Shown: positions 1 to 13,695 of the stretch, in pieces | Layout of the letters: every line of letters starts with the position of its first letter | How positions within the stretch are numbered: position 1 is the stretch's first letter | Virus record (IMG/VR): IMGVR_UViG_2526164599_000008 | DNA from: a virus | Taxonomy: Duplodnaviria > Heunggongvirae > Uroviricota > Caudoviricetes | Length of the DNA: 36,480 nt | Reading direction: 5' to 3' (one strand) | Made by a program: the position numbers and the translations under genes | The notes under the pieces: generated by a model | The model's database searches: none | Told to the model about the DNA's origin: nothing | Seen by the model: the letters and a program-made list of their open reading frames with translations, nothing else

Positions 1-1317
<1,317 letters not shown>

Positions 1318-2551: not shown

Positions 2552-2771
2552 TCTGAATATCCCCCCAACTGATATGAATATTACGGGCAGCAATGACAGG
2601 GTCGTTATTCCACCATGCACCTGACATGTATTTTTCAACCTGTTCGCGTCCGGCAATAACACCAATTGTGATCCCCGGCCTTACGTTCTTAAAAAAGGCG
2701 CGGGCAAAAAGGTATCTGGCAGATATTCGGCAGGCTTTTAATTTCCGGCTGTTACCTGATAGCGTAATCAT
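2541..2771 (-). CDS. Hypothetical early protein
   Basis: 76-aa ORF whose start overlaps the stop of the upstream gene by 4 nt. No recognisable motif. Confidence 0.35.
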   Translation of the reverse strand: MITLSGNSRKLKACRISARYLFARAFFKNVRPGITIGVIAGREQVEKYMSGAWWNNDPVIAARNIHISWGDIQNDG

Positions 2772-3451
2772 CTGGCCTCCAGTTTCTGTTGTTCCTGCCC
2801 ACTGACCGGGCGGTGCAGTCTGACGTTCTGCCCTTCACGAAACCCCGCATAGCGCGAGGCGTCGCCATTGCGGCTTCTTCCCGGTTTACGCGCCCTGGTG
2901 GTTTGCGTCTGCGGGTATTTATGTTCCAGCCACTGCTGCATCAGTTCACGTTCGTCATCGGTCAGGGCGAAGGACTGTATTTCACTGATAACGGCCAGCA
3001 CCCAGCCTTCAGCAAACTGGTCACCACGGCTGGTACGGGTGGCAGTTTTTATTCTTTTGTTCTGTGCGCTGATATACTGCTGACGCGCCTTTTTCAGCTG
3101 GCGGGCCAGCACTTCCCAGGTGTACGCAGCCAGTGCGGCCCGTTCCCGGTTGCCGTAGAACCCCACACCCGGATATGTGCCGGGGTGAATTATGGAGTTA
3201 ACACCAAATGCCTCGCGGATGATGTTCATCAGGCCCAGCATGTAGCGCGGTGGACGGAGACTGCCTGTCGGCCAGTAATGACTGATGGTTTCATCAATAT
3301 CACTCATGGCAATGTCGGAATGTGTGATGCCGTGAACATCCATCAGTTTACGGGCGCGGCGCAGTGCCAGAGCAGCCTCATACGGGTTGCCGGATGCTGC
3401 CAGCGCCAGCAACTTTTTCAGTTTTTCAATGTGTTTATCCAAGTCTGTCAT
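2768..3451 (-). CDS. DUF2786-like phage protein
   Basis: 227 aa. N-terminal IEKLKKLLALAASGNPYEAALALRRARKLM matches my memory of the DUF2786 signature. Start overlaps the upstream stop. Confidence 0.5.
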   Translation of the reverse strand: MTDLDKHIEKLKKLLALAASGNPYEAALALRRARKLMDVHGITHSDIAMSDIDETISHYWPTGSLRPPRYMLGLMNIIREAFGVNSIIHPGTYPGVGFYGNRERAALAAYTWEVLARQLKKARQQYISAQNKRIKTATRTSRGDQFAEGWVLAVISEIQSFALTDDERELMQQWLEHKYPQTQTTRARKPGRSRNGDASRYAGFREGQNVRLHRPVSGQEQQKLEAR

Positions 3452-3753
3452 TGTTCAGTATCTCCGGTGTACATGACGCCCAGCCGTGCGGCAAGGCGTT
3501 CCAGTTTTTTCTGTTTGTGGAAGTCAATCAGCCGGTCCATCCCCTGAAGGCGCAACTGCTCTGTCATGATTTCCACGTCTGCCAGCTCTGCCGCGAGGTC
3601 ACTTTCACTGCCCTGTCCGTTCAGGTTGCGGGCAGCACAGGCTGCCAGTTCAGCGGCCTCTTCTGTCAGTTTCAGGGCCTGTGCGTCCGGCCCGAAACGC
3701 TGCAGGGCCAGACGGTAGAGGGCGGTGCGGGTGAGTATGGTGTACCGTGTCAT
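3448..3753 (-). CDS. Hypothetical early protein
   Basis: 101-aa ORF, coupled to its neighbours, helical and acidic. No confident family. Confidence 0.4.
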   Translation of the reverse strand: MTRYTILTRTALYRLALQRFGPDAQALKLTEEAAELAACAARNLNGQGSESDLAAELADVEIMTEQLRLQGMDRLIDFHKQKKLERLAARLGVMYTGDTEQ

Positions 3754-3762
3754 GCTGCGCCC

Positions 3763-4035
3763 TCAGTGATTCCGGCTGACGGTGATGTGCAGACCGCCTT
3801 CTGCAGTGGTTTCCATCCGGTACGGCACCTCATGCGCTGCCGTGTGGGTTAGTGTGTTCACCAGTACCTGCAGGGCAGCCGCCTTTCCGTTGGTCGCCAC
3901 AATGGCCTGAGCGGTCATGCTGATTAGCGCCGTCAGGACGTGCTTCACATCGGTGAGGTCGCGGCATTCACACTCGTTGACATAGTGTTCAACAAGGGTT
4001 CGGGTGCGCTGTCGTGCTTCCTGTGGGGTAATCAT
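3763..4035 (-). CDS. Hypothetical early protein
   Basis: 90-aa ORF in the early operon. Start overlaps the upstream stop (4032..4035). Confidence 0.4.
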   Translation of the reverse strand: MITPQEARQRTRTLVEHYVNECECRDLTDVKHVLTALISMTAQAIVATNGKAAALQVLVNTLTHTAAHEVPYRMETTAEGGLHITVSRNH

Positions 4036-4226
4036 TGCGAGTCCTCCCTGTCAGGGCGGGAGAATTCCATGACGGGCACGTCTGCCGAAAAATGCTGGCT
4101 GCAGTACGGGCAGACCAGGGTGACGCGTACCGCAGGGATGTGGTATTTACCGGACATCACGGCGATGGCGCTGTGAAAACGCAGGGCTGTTATATCCCTC
4201 TCGCACTGAATACATTTAAATATCAT
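4032..4226 (-). CDS. Small zinc-ribbon-like protein
   Basis: 64 aa with two Cys pairs (CIQC ... CPYC). GAGGAG Shine-Dalgarno upstream of the ATG. Confidence 0.45.
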   Translation of the reverse strand: MIFKCIQCERDITALRFHSAIAVMSGKYHIPAVRVTLVCPYCSQHFSADVPVMEFSRPDREDSQ

Positions 4227-4323
4227 AATTTAATTCTCCTCTGTTTCCGGCGTGCAGAAGCCCACGGCGCTGACGCCGGAATAAAAAAGAAAATGTTTTT
4301 ATTAAATAATTAACGTGGTGTGT

Positions 4324-4854
4324 TTACTGCACATCCTGCTCAAAAGGAATTATTGAAAAATCCTCAATATCACTTTTTATGGTAATACCGGGAATATTTT
4401 TCACGGCGTCCTTTTCATTCAGGATAGCGTCTTTATTTATTTCCTCCTTTACACGGATAAAGCGCTCAAGCCCCAGACGTCTCAGTAATTCAATAACATT
4501 ATCCGCCCCACGGATACTGACTGATGGCGGACGGTTTCGCCACTGCACCTCGCCGGTGGTGAGGTTAGCGAACTTCACCTTCCCGTTGCCGGTCAGTTCA
4601 TCACGGTGTGCCTCACACCATGTCTGAATACCGGACTGCAGTTCGGCCATGCGTTTTTTCAGGCTCTCGGTGAGCGGGGCATAACGTGCGGTGATATCGC
4701 CAATGGCGTCATTCATTTCTGTTTCAGCCCTGACCAGTTCACGGTGTGCGTCACCGAGCAGTCTGATGCCCTCAATGACCTCTTCACGTGTCCCCGGCAC
4801 CCAGAGTGCTGCTGCGGCCTTGATACGTTTTGCACCTTTTGTACTTTTTGCCAT
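4324..4854 (-). CDS. gam: Gam-like host-nuclease inhibitor (Mu Gam family)
   Basis: 176 aa, Mu Gam-like length. Position just downstream of the transposition genes. Overall resemblance to Gam family proteins from memory. Confidence 0.6.
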   Translation of the reverse strand: MAKSTKGAKRIKAAAALWVPGTREEVIEGIRLLGDAHRELVRAETEMNDAIGDITARYAPLTESLKKRMAELQSGIQTWCEAHRDELTGNGKVKFANLTTGEVQWRNRPPSVSIRGADNVIELLRRLGLERFIRVKEEINKDAILNEKDAVKNIPGITIKSDIEDFSIIPFEQDVQ

Positions 4855-4881
4855 TTTTTATGATTTCTCCGGTTGTGCTGA

Positions 4882-5151
4882 TTACCACAAAGATTCCGGC
4901 CACACGACGCGACAGCCGTGCAGTTCGAAAACGCCCTGACGGAAATATCCCCTGTGGTCATGTCCGGTATACAGATAACAGGCCTTTCCCTGCTCAAGCA
5001 TGCGCATGCAATGCGCACTCCGGGAAACGCGGATGACAGGTTTGTTCCCCCTGATGGTGATGCTTTGTACATCCGTGTTCGTCGCCTTAAGCGCCATAAT
5101 GGCTGACTGCACTTTGCTGATTTGCTGGTTGATACCTGTGGTGGATTTCAT
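4882..5151 (-). CDS. Hypothetical early protein
   Basis: 89-aa ORF immediately downstream of the ATPase gene. No recognisable motif. Confidence 0.4.
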   Translation of the reverse strand: MKSTTGINQQISKVQSAIMALKATNTDVQSITIRGNKPVIRVSRSAHCMRMLEQGKACYLYTGHDHRGYFRQGVFELHGCRVVWPESLW

Positions 5152-5153
5152 TA

Positions 5154-6320
5154 TTAAACCCCTTTGACAACGTCAGCGTTGACCTGTGGAACCCCGATTT
5201 CAGCAGCCAGATTCATGGCGGCTATTACCAGGTTACTGACGGCCAGCGGATACAGCAGGCTGACCATATTTTTACGATGACTTCCCGGATTGCTCAGGCG
5301 GGCACGTATGGCATCCACTGCGCTGGCGTCCATAATGTCCGTCAGTTGTTTACCGGCCCGTTGCAGTTTGAACGTCAGAAATTCTTCAAGGTTATTGTCC
5401 AGAGGCAGAAGTTCGACCACCTCACAGCGCTGAACGACTTCACGGACTTCCATATTGCGTTCAGACAGTTTTGTCGCCAGTTCCGGCTGACCAATTAGCA
5501 CGATGGACAGCAGTTTTTTGAAACCGGACTCCAGCTCAAAAAAGCGTTTGAGGTGTTTCAGTGTCGGAATGGGCAGACTGTGGGCCTCCTCAATCACCAG
5601 AACGTGGCTGAACCCCGCCTGGCTGCTGTCTTTCAGGACGCGATGCAACTGGCGAAAGCGGGCGTCCTGACTGCGTCTGATGCTTTCCAGTGGTGCGATG
5701 GTACTGATAATGGCTTCGGCAATCGCTGCTGCCTTCAGAGTTTTCCCTTTCACATCGTTGTCTTCCATAGCGATGATGTATGGCTCGATAACAATCACTG
5801 GCGCATTCTCGCGGTTGATACGTTCAGTCAGGTCACGGCGCAGCGTGGATTTACCCGCACCGGACTCACCGATGACGGCCATAAACCCACCATGACGTGC
5901 TGTCTGGTACAACGCCTCACGCACGTAGCGAATGTCCGGGGTGGTGAACACATCATCAGAACCCTGCATGGCTTCGTCGGCGAACGGGTCACGGAAAAGA
6001 CCAAACGCTTTTTTGGTTGCTGGAAATAACACCTGTTTTTTGAGTAACATATTCTCTTCCTCACTGAGGCTCGTTTTATCTGTGGTACCCGATGTACGGG
6101 GCGTGGCCGCGCCCTGTACAGCATCAAAACTCTTCGCTGTATCAATCCCCTGACTTTCCAGCCAGGACGCAAGACGCCGGCGCACTTCTCCGGGGCTGGT
6201 GCGGGGCCACGCGTTATGATTCACAATCTGGGCCAGCGTGGCCTCAGAAACATCGACAGCTCTCGCCACCACCGCCTGTGAAATACGGGCCTCTTTCAGT
6301 TGCTGCTTCAGTACCAGCAT
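5154..6320 (-). CDS. Transposition ATPase (TnpB / Mu B-like AAA+ protein)
   Basis: Walker A GESGAGKST and Walker B-like VLVIEEAH. N-terminal HTH-like region. Track ORF starts at a GTG (6359), but the internal ATG at 6320 has GAGGAGG 5 nt upstream and lies just after the transposase stop. Confidence 0.75.
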   Translation of the reverse strand: MLVLKQQLKEARISQAVVARAVDVSEATLAQIVNHNAWPRTSPGEVRRRLASWLESQGIDTAKSFDAVQGAATPRTSGTTDKTSLSEEENMLLKKQVLFPATKKAFGLFRDPFADEAMQGSDDVFTTPDIRYVREALYQTARHGGFMAVIGESGAGKSTLRRDLTERINRENAPVIVIEPYIIAMEDNDVKGKTLKAAAIAEAIISTIAPLESIRRSQDARFRQLHRVLKDSSQAGFSHVLVIEEAHSLPIPTLKHLKRFFELESGFKKLLSIVLIGQPELATKLSERNMEVREVVQRCEVVELLPLDNNLEEFLTFKLQRAGKQLTDIMDASAVDAIRARLSNPGSHRKNMVSLLYPLAVSNLVIAAMNLAAEIGVPQVNADVVKGV

Positions 6321-6330
6321 GTTTTCCTCC

Positions 6331-8100
6331 TCAGTTGCCGTTAACAATGCTGATAACACTGCTGCGGGCCGGCGTGGTCAGCGTGGCCATGACTTCATCC
6401 AGTGCGGCTTCCGGTACGCCGTCCGGGTACTGTGCCGTTAACTGGCGGTAATGTTCCGGCGTCCAGGTAAGGCCGTTGGCGCTGAACTTCCCGCGCAGGG
6501 CTTTCGCGGCCTCCACATGAGTCATGGGACGCTGTTCAGTGCGCGGTCCGCGTACGTCAGAGGCCTGACCTCGCTTCGGCATATAGGCCGGAAGTGTGGC
6601 GTCATCAATATGTTTATACGGGTCAAGCCGCCCGCCGAACGGCAGCGCCTTCGCCTTGCGTGCGGCAGCTGCATCTGCGGCGTTGTCTGTACCGGTGACC
6701 AGCGCTTCGGTTTCTTTTGCCGCCATCTGCGCCGGGGTTTCCGGCAGGGCTTTGTAACTTTCGCCAAATACCGCCGCGCCTTCAGCAAAGCCAAACTCGT
6801 TCTTTCTGACCTCTTCGACCAGGAAGAACGTCTCGTGGCCGTCCTCACCGGTCAGAACCACCTGTGCCACATCGCTGCGCCACGGGTTACGGGTAATCAT
6901 CAGTTTTTCACCGACCAGTACGCCCGGTACCGTTGATACGTCAAATTCAGTGCCCCGGAACGAGACACGAAGTTTTGGCGTGACTTTGCGGAGTTCTGGT
7001 GCCGCCACAGCCAGTTCACGACATACCTCAACGGAAGGCGCTTTTTTCAGCTGCTCAGCAGTAATCTTCAGCCAGATATCCGTGCGGGTTTTACCGTGGC
7101 GGCTGTGAACAGCCGTGGCGTTAAAGTGGCTGCGCCATTTCGCGGCCAGCGCGTTGAGTTCTTCCAGACTGTGAACCGGCCGGAACTTCAGACCCGGCTC
7201 CAGCTTGCGTTCGATAATGTCACGCGCCTTTTCCACCTGTCCGGTGGCGCGGGCGTTATGCGGCTTGTGCGCTATCAGGTCAATGCCCAGTGAGCGGCAC
7301 ATGTTTTTCGTCATACCCGCGGTGTTTGCCGAACCGGGGTCGAGATAGAGTATTTTTGGCACGCCGTGCAGCACGTCTGCGCCGCCACGCTCCTGCATGG
7401 CGTTGATAAGCACAGAACACAGGTTCTCACCGGATTCCGCACCCGTCACATACTCAACGTAAATCCAGCCGCTGGCATGGTCGGTAATCTCGTAACTCCA
7501 CACGCGGTCACTGGCGATACGGGCAAGGTTAGCGGGTTTGTTCTTGTAGAACTTCGCGCTGTCCATCACCTGCAGCCCTTTGTGTCCATTGCTCAGGTAG
7601 TAAAGCGTGCAGAGCGAGGCATCAATCTGCCAGACATGATTGGGATGCAGACTGGCCACTTCGGTATGCGGCGCAGGAGCATCCAGTTGTTCCGGGTGCA
7701 GGCCATAGTTACGCAGGGCACGACTGATGGCATCTTCGGACAACGGGAAAAACTCACCGGTGGTTTCATCTGTTCTGCCTGCGGAGATAAAGCCGTTAGC
7801 CCGCAGGGTTTCCACTGCATCCGCGATGGAATAGAGACGCTTACCGTTCTTGCGGGTGGCCTCACGCAGTGTGGCAGATATCAGCGCGGCTTCGTCGCGG
7901 GTCAGGGCGCTGCGTCCGGCATCAGCGCGTTTTTTGCGTTTATCAGTCACAGAGACCTCCTTCAGCCTGCGCAGCAGAGTGGCGCGGGACATGCCAAGTT
8001 CAGCACAGGCAGCGTCGTATATTGCACCGCGTTTACCATGCCCCGCGTCACGTGCCGCGCGGGCGACATAAACCAGTCGTTCAGTCAGGGCAGCATTCAT
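6331..8100 (-). CDS. DDE transposase (rve/Mu-type catalytic core)
   Basis: 589 aa. Candidate catalytic residues: D in HVWQIDAS, D in ILYLDPGSAN, E about 35 residues later in GQVEKA (D,D-35-E spacing). Gene order transposase then ATPase as in transposable phages. Confidence 0.8.
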   Translation of the reverse strand: MNAALTERLVYVARAARDAGHGKRGAIYDAACAELGMSRATLLRRLKEVSVTDKRKKRADAGRSALTRDEAALISATLREATRKNGKRLYSIADAVETLRANGFISAGRTDETTGEFFPLSEDAISRALRNYGLHPEQLDAPAPHTEVASLHPNHVWQIDASLCTLYYLSNGHKGLQVMDSAKFYKNKPANLARIASDRVWSYEITDHASGWIYVEYVTGAESGENLCSVLINAMQERGGADVLHGVPKILYLDPGSANTAGMTKNMCRSLGIDLIAHKPHNARATGQVEKARDIIERKLEPGLKFRPVHSLEELNALAAKWRSHFNATAVHSRHGKTRTDIWLKITAEQLKKAPSVEVCRELAVAAPELRKVTPKLRVSFRGTEFDVSTVPGVLVGEKLMITRNPWRSDVAQVVLTGEDGHETFFLVEEVRKNEFGFAEGAAVFGESYKALPETPAQMAAKETEALVTGTDNAADAAAARKAKALPFGGRLDPYKHIDDATLPAYMPKRGQASDVRGPRTEQRPMTHVEAAKALRGKFSANGLTWTPEHYRQLTAQYPDGVPEAALDEVMATLTTPARSSVISIVNGN

Positions 8101-8103
8101 TGG

Positions 8104-9015
8104 TTATGCCTCCAGCCCGTTAATCTGTGGCGTCGGCTCAGTCAGCCATGAAGGCGCGGCATTGCCTGTTGGCTCATCCGGCAGGTCAAATGTGGAGCGC
8201 AGGCTACGCGCTGTGCTTTCCAGTTGACAGACCAGGCCTGCCATGAAGTCTCTGGGGGTATCAATCATGTTTTCAGCACAATATGCGCACAGCGTCTCAA
8301 AAGCGCTGGACAGTCGAACGGCGATAGCAGATTCCGCCTCAACCGCTAATGCTGTCACTTCCGCCCGCAGCTTCTTAACCTCTTCATCAGGCTCAGGCGG
8401 CTGAATACGGGATTTCTTCTCCAGTCTGGTGGAGAGTGAGTCTATTTTTTCATTTTTGTCAGCGAGTACGCGCTGTTGTGCTGCGTTGGTTTCGCGCGCT
8501 TCGCGCAGGGCCTGACGCAATTCACGTACTGACATGCGATCAACGTCGTCAAGCGTCAGGCCGGCAACTGTGCCGCCGTCGGCCAGTTCGGCAAGCTCTT
8601 CGTCGTCTTCTGTCATTAATTCGAAAAGTTTGGCTTTTCCCAAATGTGCCAACGTTGGCACATTTGGTTTCAGCGCCGGGGATAAGTATTTTGTCGATGC
8701 TTGCATCATTCTCACAGATGTCCGGTATGCCAGCCCCAACTCACTTTCAAGAATCTTTATAAACTCCCCGTGTGGTTCATTTTCCTTAAGGATTATCAGC
8801 CGCTTACCTGCCTCCAGCATGGCCTCAGCGCTCTGTGCCATATAAAAGCGTGCCTCATGGACAACACGATCGCGCTCATAGGGCAGACCATCGCCGAACT
8901 GTTGCATGATTTCCATGCGATGCTGTGTCATGGCGTTTAGACTGACATTGAGATCATCCGACAGCGGTACCTCGACGTTCAGTTCAGTGCTAACCGGTGA
9001 TTTGGTGCGTCCCAT
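8104..9015 (-). CDS. Hypothetical early protein with coiled-coil character
   Basis: 303-aa ORF tightly coupled upstream of the transposase gene. No confident family. Confidence 0.45.
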   Translation of the reverse strand: MGRTKSPVSTELNVEVPLSDDLNVSLNAMTQHRMEIMQQFGDGLPYERDRVVHEARFYMAQSAEAMLEAGKRLIILKENEPHGEFIKILESELGLAYRTSVRMMQASTKYLSPALKPNVPTLAHLGKAKLFELMTEDDEELAELADGGTVAGLTLDDVDRMSVRELRQALREARETNAAQQRVLADKNEKIDSLSTRLEKKSRIQPPEPDEEVKKLRAEVTALAVEAESAIAVRLSSAFETLCAYCAENMIDTPRDFMAGLVCQLESTARSLRSTFDLPDEPTGNAAPSWLTEPTPQINGLEA

Positions 9016-10121: not shown

Positions 10122-11129
10122 ATGTCTGAGCAGACCATTGAAGTTAAACACGTTGTAGTTCACATTTTAGACAAACAACAAAATGGAGACGCTTCTGAGA
10201 GATTGAGTCCTGAAGAAGGTCTAGTTACTGAAGCCTCCCAGCGCCTTATAAACGATATTTGTGCAAAATATGCAGGACGCACAGGTAAAGGTTATGGCTA
10301 TTTTGAAGGCGATACGGATAACTATCCTATGGAACGAATGGCTGGGGACTTTCTCGAAGGTGTTGATGATTTCTACCAAAGTTCCTGCCGAATGATGCAT
10401 CACCTGACGGAACGTTCTCAGCGAGAAAACATGGCTACTGGTGGTTATGTTCTTTTTGCAAATATCGTGATAGGACACAATGAACACCTGTTGATAGCTA
10501 TTGTAAGCGCTACCATTGGATCCACTGTCACAGATGATTTTAACATCCAAGATAGTACCTATCTTGATATTGCTAAGCTGCGTATGGCTGGGCGCATTGA
10601 CTTAACCGCGTGGGAAAGTGGCGCAGAGCGCTATATCAGTTTTCTTAAGGGGCAAGGTAATGTTTCAAACTATTTTAAACAGTTCCTCGGCTGTAATGAT
10701 GTCTTAATCGCCAAACGAGAGTCTGAAAAGTTACGTGACGTTTTAAAAGCATTTGCGGCAGAGAAAGGACTTGACGGCGCTGAAAAAGATGCATTTCTTA
10801 AGAGTGCGTTTGAACACTTACATGCACTAAGTAAGGCTGGTGAACCACTTAGTCTTGAAACCCTTGTTAATGCCATTTGGCCCCAGGCTCCCGAGGAGTT
10901 ATCTGGTAAACTTGCTGCTGAAGAGTTGGAGTTATCGGATGGCTTCGTTCCTGATGGTCGAGTCATTCGGGCTCTGGTATCTTTTAAAGGCAAGTCTAAA
11001 TATTGGGAACTTAAGTTTGACCGGGAAGGGAAAACTGAAGGCTATATTGATTATGATCCGGAAACAAATATTATCACCCTACGTAATGTACCTGAAGAAT
11101 TTAGGGAAATGTGGATGACTGAGGTTTAA
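10122..11129 (+). CDS. NdpA/YejK-like nucleoid-associated protein homologue (cargo gene)
   Basis: 335 aa, the same length as E. coli YejK. Blocks GGYVLF, LLIAIVS, YLDIAKL, RIDLTAWESGAERYISFLKG, FKQFLG align by eye with YejK blocks as I remember them. AT-richer than the flanking phage genes. Confidence 0.5.
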   Translation: MSEQTIEVKHVVVHILDKQQNGDASERLSPEEGLVTEASQRLINDICAKYAGRTGKGYGYFEGDTDNYPMERMAGDFLEGVDDFYQSSCRMMHHLTERSQRENMATGGYVLFANIVIGHNEHLLIAIVSATIGSTVTDDFNIQDSTYLDIAKLRMAGRIDLTAWESGAERYISFLKGQGNVSNYFKQFLGCNDVLIAKRESEKLRDVLKAFAAEKGLDGAEKDAFLKSAFEHLHALSKAGEPLSLETLVNAIWPQAPEELSGKLAAEELELSDGFVPDGRVIRALVSFKGKSKYWELKFDREGKTEGYIDYDPETNIITLRNVPEEFREMWMTEV

Positions 11130-11131
11130 TC

Positions 11132-12337
11132 GTGGCGATTTCATTTGAGATGCTGACAGATCTGTATCGTCGTATGGAATTCCAAGAGGGGTTTCGTGTC
11201 GGTTCGCTGTTGCTCTTAGATCAGTCCGATTGTGATCTGGTTGATACTTTGCTTGATGATCCTCGTGAATATGGTCTTTCTATTGATACAGGCACTATCG
11301 CTCCAGGTAACACGATCATCCTACGTGTGACGTCACCACGGAGTGGACTGGGACTTGTGTTTTCCACCCATGAAAAATTGCTAAATGCTCCAAAGCATCA
11401 GTGCCTTGAGCCAGCTAATTACTTCATCCTAGAAACAAAGTTTCGTAATGATGATGAAGATATCCCCGTTTTCATCAGCAACTACCGGAAGATTCTCGAG
11501 TTCGTTAACCTGCTAAAAGAGGCCGCGGCCTACTTTGATAACTCAACTTGTCAGTTAGTTTTTCTGAAAAAAGAAGTTATCAAGCTATTACCGCACTTCG
11601 CTGCAGAAAATGTACAAAATTTGCAAAGAGAGTATCTTGATAACCTTATAGCTTGTTTCAATGATGATACCCATAAGGATCAGAAGCTAGATATTCTGAT
11701 TGAAAGTATCCAAGCAGTTAGTGATGGAATTGATTCACCTCTAGTATTCGCTTATTTACTGGACAATATTCAGCGTCTGCATGAAAAGTTTCTGAAAGGG
11801 TATCGTATCTACTCTTCTGGATTCTCTTATGACAAAGTAATGGATCAACTGCGTGCTGCAAAAGTCGAAGAAATGGGTAAAATCCACAAAGCGTTTTCAG
11901 ATATCCAGAACCATATACTTGGCATTCCTGTTGCCTCTGTTATCGTAGCTACCCAATTCAAAGTGGCTACGAAATGGTCAGGCCAAGGGATAACAAACAC
12001 AATAATTCTTCTGGGATGCATTTTTGCTGCAACGTTAATCTGGCTGGCACTTTCGAACCAGATGCAATCTATAAAGGCCTTAGGCGAAGAAATTGAATAC
12101 AAAGAAAAACAGATTAATAAGGAATATTCCTTCATTAAAGATGACGTGGCTGGTGTATTTAGCAGTATTTCTGCGCGACTAGACACGCAGAAACGTACGT
12201 TCTGGATTATACGTGGTGTTCTAGTTATGGGAATTATTACCGCTATCACTGTTTATTTTTGGTACACAAAACCAGCCCTTGACTTCATGCAGTACTTGAT
12301 TCACTGCATGAAGTCTTACTATTCGGTCAAAAGTTGA
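11132..12337 (+). CDS. Unknown protein with two C-terminal transmembrane helices, operonic with the NdpA-like gene
   Basis: 401 aa. GTG start 2 nt after the upstream stop with GAGG upstream. N-terminal soluble region of about 285 aa has no motif I recognise. Hydrophobic helices ITNTIILLGCIFAATLIWLALS and FWIIRGVLVMGIITAITVYFWY. Confidence 0.55.
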   Translation: MAISFEMLTDLYRRMEFQEGFRVGSLLLLDQSDCDLVDTLLDDPREYGLSIDTGTIAPGNTIILRVTSPRSGLGLVFSTHEKLLNAPKHQCLEPANYFILETKFRNDDEDIPVFISNYRKILEFVNLLKEAAAYFDNSTCQLVFLKKEVIKLLPHFAAENVQNLQREYLDNLIACFNDDTHKDQKLDILIESIQAVSDGIDSPLVFAYLLDNIQRLHEKFLKGYRIYSSGFSYDKVMDQLRAAKVEEMGKIHKAFSDIQNHILGIPVASVIVATQFKVATKWSGQGITNTIILLGCIFAATLIWLALSNQMQSIKALGEEIEYKEKQINKEYSFIKDDVAGVFSSISARLDTQKRTFWIIRGVLVMGIITAITVYFWYTKPALDFMQYLIHCMKSYYSVKS

Positions 12338-13097
12338 GGATAATGAGTTCCTTCTTGCGACTGGATTTGCCAGTGATCTTGAGGTTGTAGCTGATATCAA
12401 CCGACTGAATATTTAGACCGTTGAATGCCTGCCGCATTTCCGGGATATCGTTCACCGATATAATCATCTTCCCTTTGATCCTGCGTGCTAAATCTGCCAT
12501 ATGATCATAATTTTCTAGTCCGAACTCCACACCATAACCTTCCGTTCCCCAGTATGGAGGGTCACAGTAGAACAACGTATGCGGGCGATCATATCGTTCT
12601 ATGCACTGTTGCCAGTCCATGTGTTCTATGACCGTTCTGGAAAGCCGCAGGTGTGCCGCTGACAGTTCTTCTTCAATACGCAGCAGGTTGAAGCGTGGCG
12701 GGGATATGGTGGAGGTACCAAAGCTGTGCTCCGCCACCTTGCCTCCAAACGCCTGCTTCTGAAGGTAGTAGAACCGTGCTGCACGCTGGATATCCGTCAG
12801 TGTTTCTTCCGGGGTGATCTGCAGCCATTTGTAGATCTGCCGGCTGACCAGCGCCCATTTGAACTGGCGTACAAATTCTTCCAGATGATGTTTTACCACC
12901 CGATACAGGTTCACCAGTTCACCGTTGATATCATTAATGACTTCGATCTTGCCGGGTACCTTAAGAAAATAGAGCGCTGCTGCCCCACAAAACGGCTCCA
13001 CATAACATTCATGCGCCGGAAACAGCGGCAGGATGTGTTTTGCAAGGCGGCGTTTGCCACCAATCCATGGAACGATGGGTAATGTCTGCATTTTCAT
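12327..13097 (-). CDS. DNA N6-adenine methyltransferase, Dam-like
   Basis: 256 aa. AdoMet motif VEPFCGAAALYF and catalytic DPPY. Opening PWIGGKRRL matches the Dam family. Convergent with, and overlapping by 11 nt, the membrane-protein gene. Confidence 0.8.
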   Translation of the reverse strand: MKMQTLPIVPWIGGKRRLAKHILPLFPAHECYVEPFCGAAALYFLKVPGKIEVINDINGELVNLYRVVKHHLEEFVRQFKWALVSRQIYKWLQITPEETLTDIQRAARFYYLQKQAFGGKVAEHSFGTSTISPPRFNLLRIEEELSAAHLRLSRTVIEHMDWQQCIERYDRPHTLFYCDPPYWGTEGYGVEFGLENYDHMADLARRIKGKMIISVNDIPEMRQAFNGLNIQSVDISYNLKITGKSSRKKELIILNF

Positions 13098-13344
13098 AAT
13101 CTGTAAGCCTTTTACAATTATAAAAAATATGGCAGGCTAGTCTGGTCTCGCGAGACTGACTGAACCTCGGTCGGCTCACAGCGCATTCCTGTGGGGCGAT
13201 GGCCAGCCCGGTGTTCGGGTACCGGGCTGGTCGTTCTTTCAAAGTCATCATGCAGTGCACGTTTACATCTTCACTATTAACGCTGTTTAAAATCCGTATC
13301 CCGCCACATTTGTGATGCTGTCTCCACCAAACGAGGAGACACAC
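13098..13344. promoter_or_regulatory. Intergenic region upstream of the lysis/late operon; candidate late promoter
   Basis: About 250 bp non-coding. Contains the 12-bp palindrome GTCTCGCGAGAC and the stem-loop CCAGCCCGGT...ACCGGGCTGG. AGGAG Shine-Dalgarno before the ATG at 13345. Confidence 0.4.
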
Positions 13345-13695
13345 ATGAAAAACCTGAAAAAATTCATTCCCCCTGTTAAAAAACCTCGCCTCAGCGGCTG
13401 GCTGCTGACCTCAGTGCTGTTGCTGGGCATCATCGCTCTGGTCTCGCCACAGCAGTTGCCTGTTGTGATCTACAAGCTGGCACTTATCACGCTGGCAGCA
13501 GTGCTGGGTTACTGGCTTGACCGTTCGCTCTTCCCCAAAGCCCGTCCCGGTCAGTACCTGAAACATGACGACAGGCTGATGGCTGAAGGGCGTTTCCCGG
13601 TACAGACCGGCCTTCACCTGGTGTTTTCTGCTGCGTTAATCCGCCGTGCACTGATTGTTGCAGCGGTCTGCCTGGCTGTGGCAACAGGACTGTGA
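13345..13695 (+). CDS. Holin-like small membrane protein
   Basis: Track ORF 13312..13695 trimmed to the ATG at 13345. About 116 aa with two or three hydrophobic helices. Sits immediately upstream of the endolysin. Confidence 0.45.
   Translation: MKNLKKFIPPVKKPRLSGWLLTSVLLLGIIALVSPQQLPVVIYKLALITLAAVLGYWLDRSLFPKARPGQYLKHDDRLMAEGRFPVQTGLHLVFSAALIRRALIVAAVCLAVATGL

Follow-up and report, generated by a model that had tools for sequence, protein, structure and literature searches.

The window analysed here, a stretch of 36,480 nucleotides from a Caudoviricetes virus, carries a solitary gene for a Dam-family DNA methyltransferase whose 3' end runs into that of a membrane-protein gene on the opposite strand, and this raises the question of what such an enzyme does for the phage and whether it has anything to do with its neighbours. 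The preliminary description of the locus had offered three answers, namely a phage anti-restriction methyltransferase, a regulator of phage gene expression through GATC methylation, or a self-protection partner of the adjacent two-gene operon. Of these, the anti-restriction role emerges as the best supported, because of the kinship of the methylase with the com-linked enzyme that replaces Mom in phage B3, while the other two options are not supported. We predict the methylase to be an active, orphan, phage-borne D12 enzyme that serves anti-restriction modification in the lytic phase, which is the role of Mom in Mu, and we assign to this reading a probability of about 0.6. The features on which the analysis relies are the following:

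12327–13097, minus strand: D12-class (Dam-family, alpha-type) orphan DNA methyltransferase of 256 aa, defined by the ORF listing, profile searches and a structural model.
10122–12337, plus strand: two-gene cassette coding for a YejK/NA37 nucleoid-associated protein (10122–11129) and a 401-aa membrane protein (11132–12337), a neighbour of the methylase and not its partner, which resembles the PANGU type II/DS-1 anti-phage system (PANGU preprint, DefensePredictor).
12327–12337, no strand assigned: tail-to-tail overlap of 11 nt between the methylase gene and that of the 401-aa membrane protein.
12281–12315, no strand assigned: perfect hairpin of 13 bp within the final codons of the membrane-protein gene, 11 nt past the methylase stop codon (z = -3.8).
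13122–13248, plus strand: conserved structured RNA of ~125 nt, with three hairpins in a multiloop, the last of which is GC-rich, terminator-like and followed by a U-run.
13091–13118, plus strand: sigma-70-like candidate promoter TTTTCA-16-TACAAT, from a consensus scan only, which could drive the RNA motif.

The methylase is identical to RefSeq WP_000783856.1, 'DNA adenine methylase', and its gene is in this respect an already annotated, ordinary and common prophage gene. The preliminary description had called for a careful re-reading of the frame, and this proves to be intact: the ORF listing gives an ATG start and no frameshift, and the protein aligns end to end with many homologues of 256 aa. 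The Dam-family motifs noticed at the outset are indeed present, as AdoMet motif I occupies residues 36–40 (F36-C-G38-A-A; FCGAAALYF within EPFCGAAALYF) and the catalytic motif IV, DPPY, residues D179–Y182, the former lying N-terminal and the latter C-terminal of the target-recognition region, in the order of the D12/alpha type. In a 50-sequence family alignment, G38, DPPY and the GGK and FxGxA residues are invariant within the clade. Profile searches agree, with E=7e-28 for Pfam PF02086 (98.4 bits against a cut-off of 22), a borderline pass for TIGR00571 'dam' (116.9 bits against 114.85) and E=4e-115 for the PADLOC model MTase_II. The AlphaFold model (pLDDT 91.7) has an EcoDam/DpnM-like fold, with TM-scores of 0.78–0.82 to EcoDam, 0.78 to DpnM, 0.78–0.82 to M.CbeI and 0.69 to T4 Dam. 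Profile cut-offs, motif order and a fold of the Dam/DpnM type thus all place the protein in the D12 class. EcoDam, DpnM and T4 Dam, which are GATC m6A enzymes of this class, share with it the fold, the motif order and the GGK, FxGxG and DPPY residues, although the identity is only 23–24% with EcoDam/DpnM and 16–18% with T4 Dam.

The prophage of the window is a Mu-like one of the BcepMu type from E. coli, and the methylase is part of the conserved backbone of enterobacterial BcepMu-like transposable prophages. Its region is present in 636 of 5426 complete E. coli genomes (about 12%), the phages KP12 and PhiKM carry the gene at the same place, and 673 clusters (50% identity) match the protein at E<=1e-30. 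The gene is under purifying selection (dN/dS = 0.02–0.09). In the window it is flanked on one side by the pair of NA37 and membrane-protein genes and on the other by holin and transglycosylase genes, with an intergenic RNA element in between. The cargo next to the methylase region varies among E. coli, the cassette of this window being found in only 19 genomes. The slot between repressor and methylase is a cargo site, which here carries a putative defence system of a recently described NAP-based type.

We have considered whether the methylase works together with any of these neighbours. The absence of an adjacent restriction endonuclease, already remarked upon from the sequence, is borne out in the window, where none is found among the identified neighbours, and extends to the relatives: a search seeded with a 7-sequence methylase alignment yielded 80 species-level loci, and in the 27 adjacent genes scanned from these (140–1200 aa) no restriction-enzyme Pfam family was detected. 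The methylase is an orphan (solitary) phage methyltransferase. That it could be the M subunit of a type II restriction-modification system with an unrecognised endonuclease is suggested by the name of its best PADLOC model, 'Type II methyltransferase', and by the convergent gene pairs that such systems often hold; however, the neighbours are hyper-variable (243 different neighbour clusters across the 80 loci), the scanned ones carry no endonuclease family and the surroundings consist of phage lysis, structural or com genes, which makes this highly improbable. The usual convergent neighbour, for its part, is a 175-aa lipoprotein with signal peptide and lipobox, and was discarded as a restriction-modification partner on that account. 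As for the cassette, it resembles a PANGU-type-II/DS-1-like system and is putatively defensive: its NA37 gene matches PF04245 with E=1e-80 and is separated by a 3-nt gap from that of the membrane protein, which has a weak KwaA match and a KwaA-like C-terminal membrane region, the matches to NCBIfam DS1_1 and DS1_2 lying far below the equivalog cut-offs. Adjacency and the 11 shared nucleotides, in a juxtaposition that recurs in E. coli AREA_C483, Mixta and Brenneria, had suggested that the methylase protects or regulates this cassette, to which it would be coupled through the overlap. However, more than 600 E. coli genomes have the methylase region but not the cassette, and the two genes of PANGU type II are all that its defence requires (PANGU preprint). 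Also, E. coli A35 and a lambdoid prophage provide instances of the cassette unaccompanied by a methylase, and because of this we reject the self-protection partnership, the odds of which seem to us minimal; the cassette is independent of the methylase.

The overlap itself is exact and appears identically in the RefSeq annotation, but its form changes with the lineage, being 11 nt in E. coli AREA_C483, 8 nt in Mixta and replaced by a 22-nt gap in Brenneria. With respect to Brenneria, which keeps both stop codon and terminator, the window junction has undergone a TAG>AAG stop loss and a 6-nt deletion, and because the stop codon was lost the overlap is a derived accident. The 13-bp hairpin, which is kept in AREA_C483 and Mixta, separates the two transcription units; its Brenneria counterpart, which differs by a single compensatory change (T-A>A-T), includes the stop codon and has TGTTTTTC after it, and the hairpin of the window is the remnant of the cassette terminator. 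The collision of transcription units seen in the preliminary description does not, in view of the derived overlap and of the hairpin between the units, amount to a design.

Regarding the chemistry of the enzyme, both adenine as the target base and GATC as the site are predictions from family membership only, and the enzyme may recognise GATC, or else a shorter or broader sequence; a search of the literature on VP882, phiE125, VHML, BcepMu and methylomes yielded no measured motif for the clade. A canonical GATC-specific Dam would have an epigenetic or housekeeping role, either topping up GATC on fast-replicating phage DNA, which would avoid MutH/SeqA effects, or controlling lysogeny and lysis or phage promoters. 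The TIGR00571 'Dam family' cut-off just passed is in line with this, as are the best solved relatives, DpnM and EcoDam, and the fact that B. cenocepacia H111 needs a prophage methylase for stable lysogeny. However, the Dam equivalog NF008152 yields 69.2 bits against a cut-off of 441. In EcoDam, work by Horton et al. in 2006 is said to have identified K9, L122, R124 and P134 as the residues reading GATC, and these are replaced by P10, K120, A122 and S132 in the methylase, in a loop alignment that is not secure; the recognition hairpin and loop vary within the clade. On the side of a GATC-specific Dam, no 4-mer palindrome is more depleted in the prophage than GATC (observed/expected 0.58, and 0.38 in KP12), and an early region of 5.9 kb is free of it. 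However, the A35 prophage, which has no methylase, shows depletion just as strong (0.56) and BcepMu shows none (1.02), so that depletion tracks the host and not the methylase gene, and it was discarded as a proxy for specificity. A count of GATC sites between 12945 and 13467 gave zero, and there are therefore none in the intergenic region between methylase and holin, a result that goes against the proposed regulation through GATC in late promoters. Considering as well that Com-type control in the relatives would be odd for a harmless activity, and that in Photorhabdus a probable orthologue stays silent in the lysogen, we regard a canonical GATC-specific Dam as rather unlikely. The solved relatives were equally discarded as a guide to specificity, as they are equidistant and include an m4C enzyme. 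This is M.CbeI (7M6B), of the alpha class and D12 fold, whose full-length similarity to the methylase is as strong as that of DpnM and EcoDam (profile E=2e-37, against 5e-38 and 7e-34, respectively) and which also shares DPPY and a similar recognition hairpin, the resemblance extending to the sequence of the recognition loop; together with the TM-score, this would fit an N4-cytosine enzyme. M.CbeI is nevertheless only about 22% identical and, unlike the orphan methylase, belongs to a restriction-modification system of a thermophilic Firmicute, in which it methylates cytosine within GGCC. In the literature it figures as a unique exception. Nearly all D12 enzymes characterised so far make m6A, and the clade studied here lies behind com and takes the place of Mom, which modifies adenine, for which reasons a cytosine target is improbable.

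The anti-restriction reading draws on a different set of comparisons. The methylase is 66% identical over its whole length (E=4e-131) to ORF48 of Pseudomonas phage B3, which directly follows the Com homologue ORF47. B3 carries this methylase in the place of Mom, and its activity is undemonstrated (PMC3299994). Both genes are orphans of transposable, Mu-like phages and have the same structured RNA upstream, but B3 ORF48 lies inside the late operon behind com, whereas the methylase of the window is encoded on the opposite strand, without com, and has the immunity region on one side and the lysis genes on the other. About 17 related loci have a Com-type zinc-finger ORF immediately before the methylase gene, and the ORF listing of the window shows none between 13098 and 13311; because this copy lacks com, Mom-like control is only partly present here. 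Also, in E. coli A35 a BcepMu-like prophage that has no such methylase contains com-mom instead, again preceded by the RNA motif. The Com-Mom system of Mu is a functional analogue, being a late and tightly controlled adenine modification for anti-restriction, just as relatives of the methylase are com-linked, and divergent overlapping promoters (momP1/momP2) are known at Mu mom. Mom itself is unrelated, as it has an acyltransferase fold and makes methylcarbamoyl-adenine; moreover, Mu is without the RNA motif, whereas the methylase region of the window is without Mu-type GATC/OxyR sites.

Other mobile methylases enlarge this picture. In Mu-like prophages, the place of mom downstream of a com homologue can be taken by Hia5, Hin1523 or Nma1821, non-specific adenine methyltransferases with a distant relationship to Dam, which act as anti-restriction modifiers and are silent in lysogens (PMC3299994). 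They form a different, more divergent family, in which relaxed specificity has been shown, whereas for the methylase it is conjectured. Since B3 ORF48 is absent from the 1000 best PSI-BLAST matches of Hia5 (PMC3299994), membership of the methylase in the Hia5/Hin1523 family is unlikely. A closer case is that of plu3449 (M.PluTORF3449) of Photorhabdus luminescens TT01, a solitary 771-bp D12-class gene in prophage P80, which, judged from gene size, domains and prophage location, is a probable orthologue; homologues in Photorhabdus species are 84% identical to the window methylase. Its expression is below 0.001 times that of gyrB, with no motif assigned (PMC6092372), and REBASE gives it a '?'.

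The structured RNA is divergent from the methylase, its 5' end lying 25 nt from the methylase ATG, and has a predicted MFE of -57 kcal/mol (z = -3.8). In a 10-sequence alignment, compensatory changes support 12 of 41 pairs by RNAalifold and 13 of 41 by pair count, and in 51 sequences 40 of the 41 pairs covary. The covariance model matches 59 of the 80 methylase loci, always at the same position and in the same orientation. The RNA is assigned to the plus strand because G.U pairs (302) far outnumber A.C pairs (58), and the same counts rule it out as a 5' UTR on the methylase strand. A search of the Rfam families returned no match, so that it is not a known family, and it was not found in Mu, BcepMu or a lambdoid prophage, in which it was also sought. 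It precedes modules of com-mom, com-methylase and bare methylase alike. The -35 hexamer of the candidate promoter overlaps the methylase start codon, in a layout that resembles the divergent overlapping promoters momP1/momP2 of Mu (PMC4287176). We propose this previously undescribed ~125-nt motif as a candidate regulator of phage DNA-modification genes.

In the anti-restriction reading, the methylase would be kept off in the lysogen and would be switched on during lytic growth from an activator-dependent promoter; it would then methylate replicating phage DNA, and the methylated progeny would escape restriction in the next host. The same job is done by Mom in Mu and, as is assumed there, by the homologous com-linked methylase in B3. 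The timing of expression and the anti-restriction role, like the adenine target base and the recognition sequence, are what we infer for this enzyme. A consensus scan revealed no sigma-70-like promoter upstream of the methylase, and a Mor-family activator is encoded at 1533–1922; a comparison of the methylase–holin spacer with other late intergenic regions gave nothing convincing as a shared late-promoter motif. Some observations weigh against a Mom-like role: an enzyme specific for GATC would provide little extra protection in a dam+ host, the data on silence in lysogens come from another genus (Photorhabdus), and the complementarity of com-mom and methylase concerns very few prophages. More speculatively, the B3-ORF48-type clade could be a second, independent family of Mom-replacing phage methyltransferases, harmful enough for Mom-style containment, perhaps through a short or relaxed specificity as in Hia5, and contained in part via the divergently transcribed ~125-nt RNA, which goes with com-mom as well as (com-)D12-methylase modules across Proteobacteria and would regulate DNA-modification genes; this we put forward as a tentative proposal, open to considerable doubt.

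The methylase gene in itself changes nothing, as it is a common, annotated prophage methylase. However, the 'Dam' annotations of this very widespread clade derive from family membership only, and if its specificity were relaxed, the methylase would become a candidate tool of the Hia5/EcoGII kind, and would also be a variable that goes unnoticed when the methylomes of induced lysogens are studied. The RNA motif, in turn, is a concrete candidate regulator of phage DNA-modification genes, and could account for the divergent promoter at Mu mom, which has long lacked an explanation.

The methylase is part of an E. coli prophage of the BcepMu-like (Bcepmuvirus) transposable kind. On the minus strand of the window this prophage encodes Mor, GemA, Gam, an AAA+ B-like protein and an rve transposase; its plus strand carries an HTH repressor, holin, SLT transglycosylase, terminase and P2-like tail. 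The first open reading frame (1-1317, plus strand, 438 aa, with PAP2 and dual-specificity phosphatase domains) is apparently host flank, and the left end of the prophage falls at about 1320-1530, between this frame and the Mor gene (1533-1922). E. coli RIVM_C036569 carries the same prophage in hycH/hyfJ, an insertion of the kind that a transposable phage would make. Across 18 complete E. coli genomes, the 3.9 kb surrounding the methylase show 99.6-100% identity. Among 5426 complete E. coli genomes the methylase region is found in 636 and the two-gene cargo in only 19, the commonest order being repressor, 175-aa lipoprotein, a 47-bp gap with a hairpin, methylase (opposite orientation) and holin; the corresponding slot of BcepMu holds other genes and no methylase. 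This distribution and slot content make the methylase a backbone gene in the enterobacterial lineage and the neighbouring slot, between repressor and methylase, a cargo site.

Features around the methylase
10122-11129, plus strand: cargo gene 1, YejK/NA37 nucleoid-associated protein (E=1e-80)
11132-12337, plus strand: cargo gene 2, membrane protein of 401 aa
12281-12315: 13-bp hairpin retained in the window, with one compensatory change in Brenneria, now within coding sequence
12327-13097, minus strand: methylase, ATG start, 256 aa
13122-13248, plus strand: structured RNA motif (about 125 nt, extensive covariation), divergent from the methylase

The methylase reading frame is as the preliminary description gave it, and a check for frameshifts found none. 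Its assignment to the Dam family is likewise borne out, with concordant evidence from Pfam PF02086 (E=7e-28), TIGR00571 'dam' (116.9 bits against a cut-off of 114.85), motif I, DPPY and the fold. Across 50 aligned family members, little or no variation is seen at G13-G14-K15, motif I F36xG38 and D179-P-P-Y182. The AlphaFold model is confident (pLDDT 91.7) and can be superposed on EcoDam, DpnM and M.CbeI at TM-scores of 0.78-0.82. The PADLOC type II methyltransferase model also matches (E=4e-115). Pairwise dN/dS against four diverged copies is 0.02-0.09, and the gene is therefore maintained by selection. Among the closest 50%-identity cluster representatives are giant proteins of 1000-2500 aa in which this methyltransferase domain occurs two to four times in tandem (P0123, P0135, P0144, P0147, P0156, P0177 and P0236).

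With one genome searched per species, 80 related loci were recovered, spanning gamma-, beta- and delta-proteobacteria, with methylases 61-91% identical. The genes next to these methylases sort into 243 clusters, of which 211 are singletons and the biggest has seven members (a 123-aa upstream-side protein, probably the holin). No restriction-enzyme family was detected among the 27 closely adjacent genes of 140-1200 aa, which encode sheath and portal proteins, Imm52, pentapeptide-repeat proteins, a reverse transcriptase and acetyltransferases, and the proposed orphan status thus holds across the genes scanned.

Membership of the Dam family need not extend to Dam specificity, and the methylase fails the Dam equivalog model (69 bits against a cut-off of 441). 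The EcoDam residues K9, L122, R124 and P134, which reportedly read GATC, lie opposite P, K, A and S in the HMMER alignment, and the recognition hairpin is variable within the methylase clade. Also, the clade profile is about equally close to DpnM (5e-38), M.CbeI (2e-37), which is an N4-cytosine enzyme, and EcoDam (7e-34). The observed/expected ratio of GATC is 0.55-0.58 in the window prophage, 0.38 in phage KP12, 0.56 in the A35 prophage of E. coli and 1.02 in BcepMu, and reaches 0.97 in the cargo-plus-methylase region; because depletion is as strong in the methylase-less A35 and absent in BcepMu, it reflects the dam+ host and not the methylase. A count over the region 12945-13467, adjacent late promoter included, gave no GATC sites, so GATC methylation as a control on that promoter is not supported. 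As a separate observation, a 5.9-kb stretch of the window (2671-8537), part of the early/transposition operon encoding Gam, the B-like ATPase, the transposase and DUF3102, has zero GATC against about 16 expected locally; KP12 has a GATC-free stretch of 3.9 kb over the same early genes, and none comparable was found in the A35 relative or BcepMu.

A partnership with the cargo cassette had also been proposed. The cassette has the architecture of type II PANGU (a NAP sensor and a transmembrane effector) and of the DS-1 system of DefensePredictor; both genes weakly match the NCBIfam 'anti-phage' models DS1_1 and DS1_2, and the membrane-protein gene weakly matches KwaA. In type II PANGU the two genes suffice for defence (PANGU preprint). 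Diverged cassette copies occur in the A35 BcepMu-like prophage, where the methylase is absent, and in a lambdoid prophage, between Q and holin, and the methylase region is mostly found without the cassette. Cassette and methylase are therefore independent, and we have rejected a self-protection role for the methylase. The last ~17 methylase codons (about 12327-12386; 4706-4760 in locus L010) co-vary with the cassette, the tail being KSSRKKELIILNF in its presence and KPSPKKELVICNF in its absence, which places a recombination junction for cassette exchange inside the methylase 3' end.

The 11-nt 3' overlap of methylase and membrane-protein gene is present as described, and is shared by the 90% identical AREA_C483 copy; Mixta has an 8-nt overlap and Brenneria a 22-nt gap. 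In Brenneria the membrane-protein gene stops at a TAG within the hairpin, and this hairpin together with the TGTTTTTC after it makes a normal terminator. The window lineage has AAG in place of this TAG and lacks 6 nt of the terminator tail (window 12281-12337; about 5763-5800 in locus L021), so that the membrane-protein frame extends into the methylase gene. The overlap thus arose by stop-codon loss, as an accident, and the supposed collision of transcription units is no design feature.

On the other side of the methylase, a segment that folds strongly (13120-13250, z = -3.8) lies in the 214-bp spacer to the holin; its 3' end on the plus strand is a GC-rich hairpin followed by TCGTTCTTTC. Ahead of the segment stands a promoter-like TTTTCA-16-TACAAT, with a -35 hexamer that overlaps the start codon of the methylase. 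This RNA is conserved, with compensatory changes, from Escherichia to Serratia, Xenorhabdus, Photorhabdus and Brenneria. In a 10-sequence alignment RNAalifold scores 12 of the 41 predicted pairs as compensated (13 by pair count), all 500 shuffles fell short of the real alignment in each of percentage paired, compensatory counts and covariation score, and in slid controls only 31-51% of cells pair. When 51 sequences are aligned by fitting to the model, which favours the model's structure, pairing reaches 91.8% of cells, and 40 of 41 pairs have compensatory change. G.U pairs outnumber A.C pairs (302 vs 58), and the RNA therefore lies on the strand opposite the methylase. A covariance model recovers it (E<1e-3) in 59 of the 80 methylase loci; it was not found in Mu, BcepMu or one lambdoid prophage, and Rfam holds no family for it.

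The RNA motif in relatives, always divergent from and directly upstream of the modification genes
59 of the loci L014-L093: opposite strand to, and immediately upstream of, the D12 methylase, or of com where present
L095 1720-1848, minus strand: upstream of com-ORF48 of the Mu-like Pseudomonas phage B3
L011 4345-4479, plus strand: upstream of com-mom of A35

The obvious hypothesis is that the RNA regulates expression of the modification genes that it invariably precedes, and the promoter layout resembles that of Mu, where momP1 and momP2 diverge and overlap (PMC4287176). More modestly, the RNA could be an insulating terminator ahead of the lysis genes. Downstream of the RNA terminator (13285-13300 region) the block CTATTAACGC(T/G)(G/A)TTTA hardly varies among six relatives, even where the downstream gene differs (alignment A3), and is a candidate late (Mor-dependent) promoter element. 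A second cargo slot, empty in the window, lies directly after the terminator, just right of 13248.

Extra genes in the second slot
KP12 (L002 6981-7547): DUF2441 protein
E. coli S12 (L005 5347-5895): 2TM 'effector'-like protein
PhiKM (L001 7497-8225): 242-aa protein

As to the role of the methylase, its kinship with B3 is informative: ORF48 is 66% identical and follows the Com homologue ORF47, and B3 carries it 'instead of a homolog of Mom', activity of ORF48 never having been demonstrated (Drozdz et al., PMC3299994). In about 17 of the 80 loci, the frame immediately preceding the methylase encodes a Com-type zinc finger (IRCGxC...KCPRC). The probable orthologue plu3449 of P. luminescens TT01 (771 bp, D12 class, prophage P80, REBASE target unknown) is expressed at <0.001 times gyrB (PMC6092372), and no sigma-70-like promoter was found upstream of the methylase. 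The A35 prophage has com-mom at its right end (L011 3488-4379), and the window's prophage lineage, which finishes in tail fibres and an invertase, has no mom. Taken together, the B3 kinship, com linkage, alternation with com-mom, silence of plu3449 and lack of a sigma-70-like promoter match lead us to consider it somewhat probable (about 0.6) that the methylase is a lytic-phase DNA-modification enzyme, a functional analogue of Mom that is silent in lysogens. The preliminary reading thus survives as to an orphan, Dam-family, probably anti-restriction enzyme, and falls as to cargo partnership and designed collision, with no support for GATC control of the late promoter. As a gene the methylase is ordinary and already known, the identical protein WP_000783856.1 being named 'DNA adenine methylase' in RefSeq; it is its target specificity and the adjacent RNA that merit follow-up. 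The presence of com-mom in A35, as against the methylase in the window lineage, suggests that DNA-modification modules are interchangeable.
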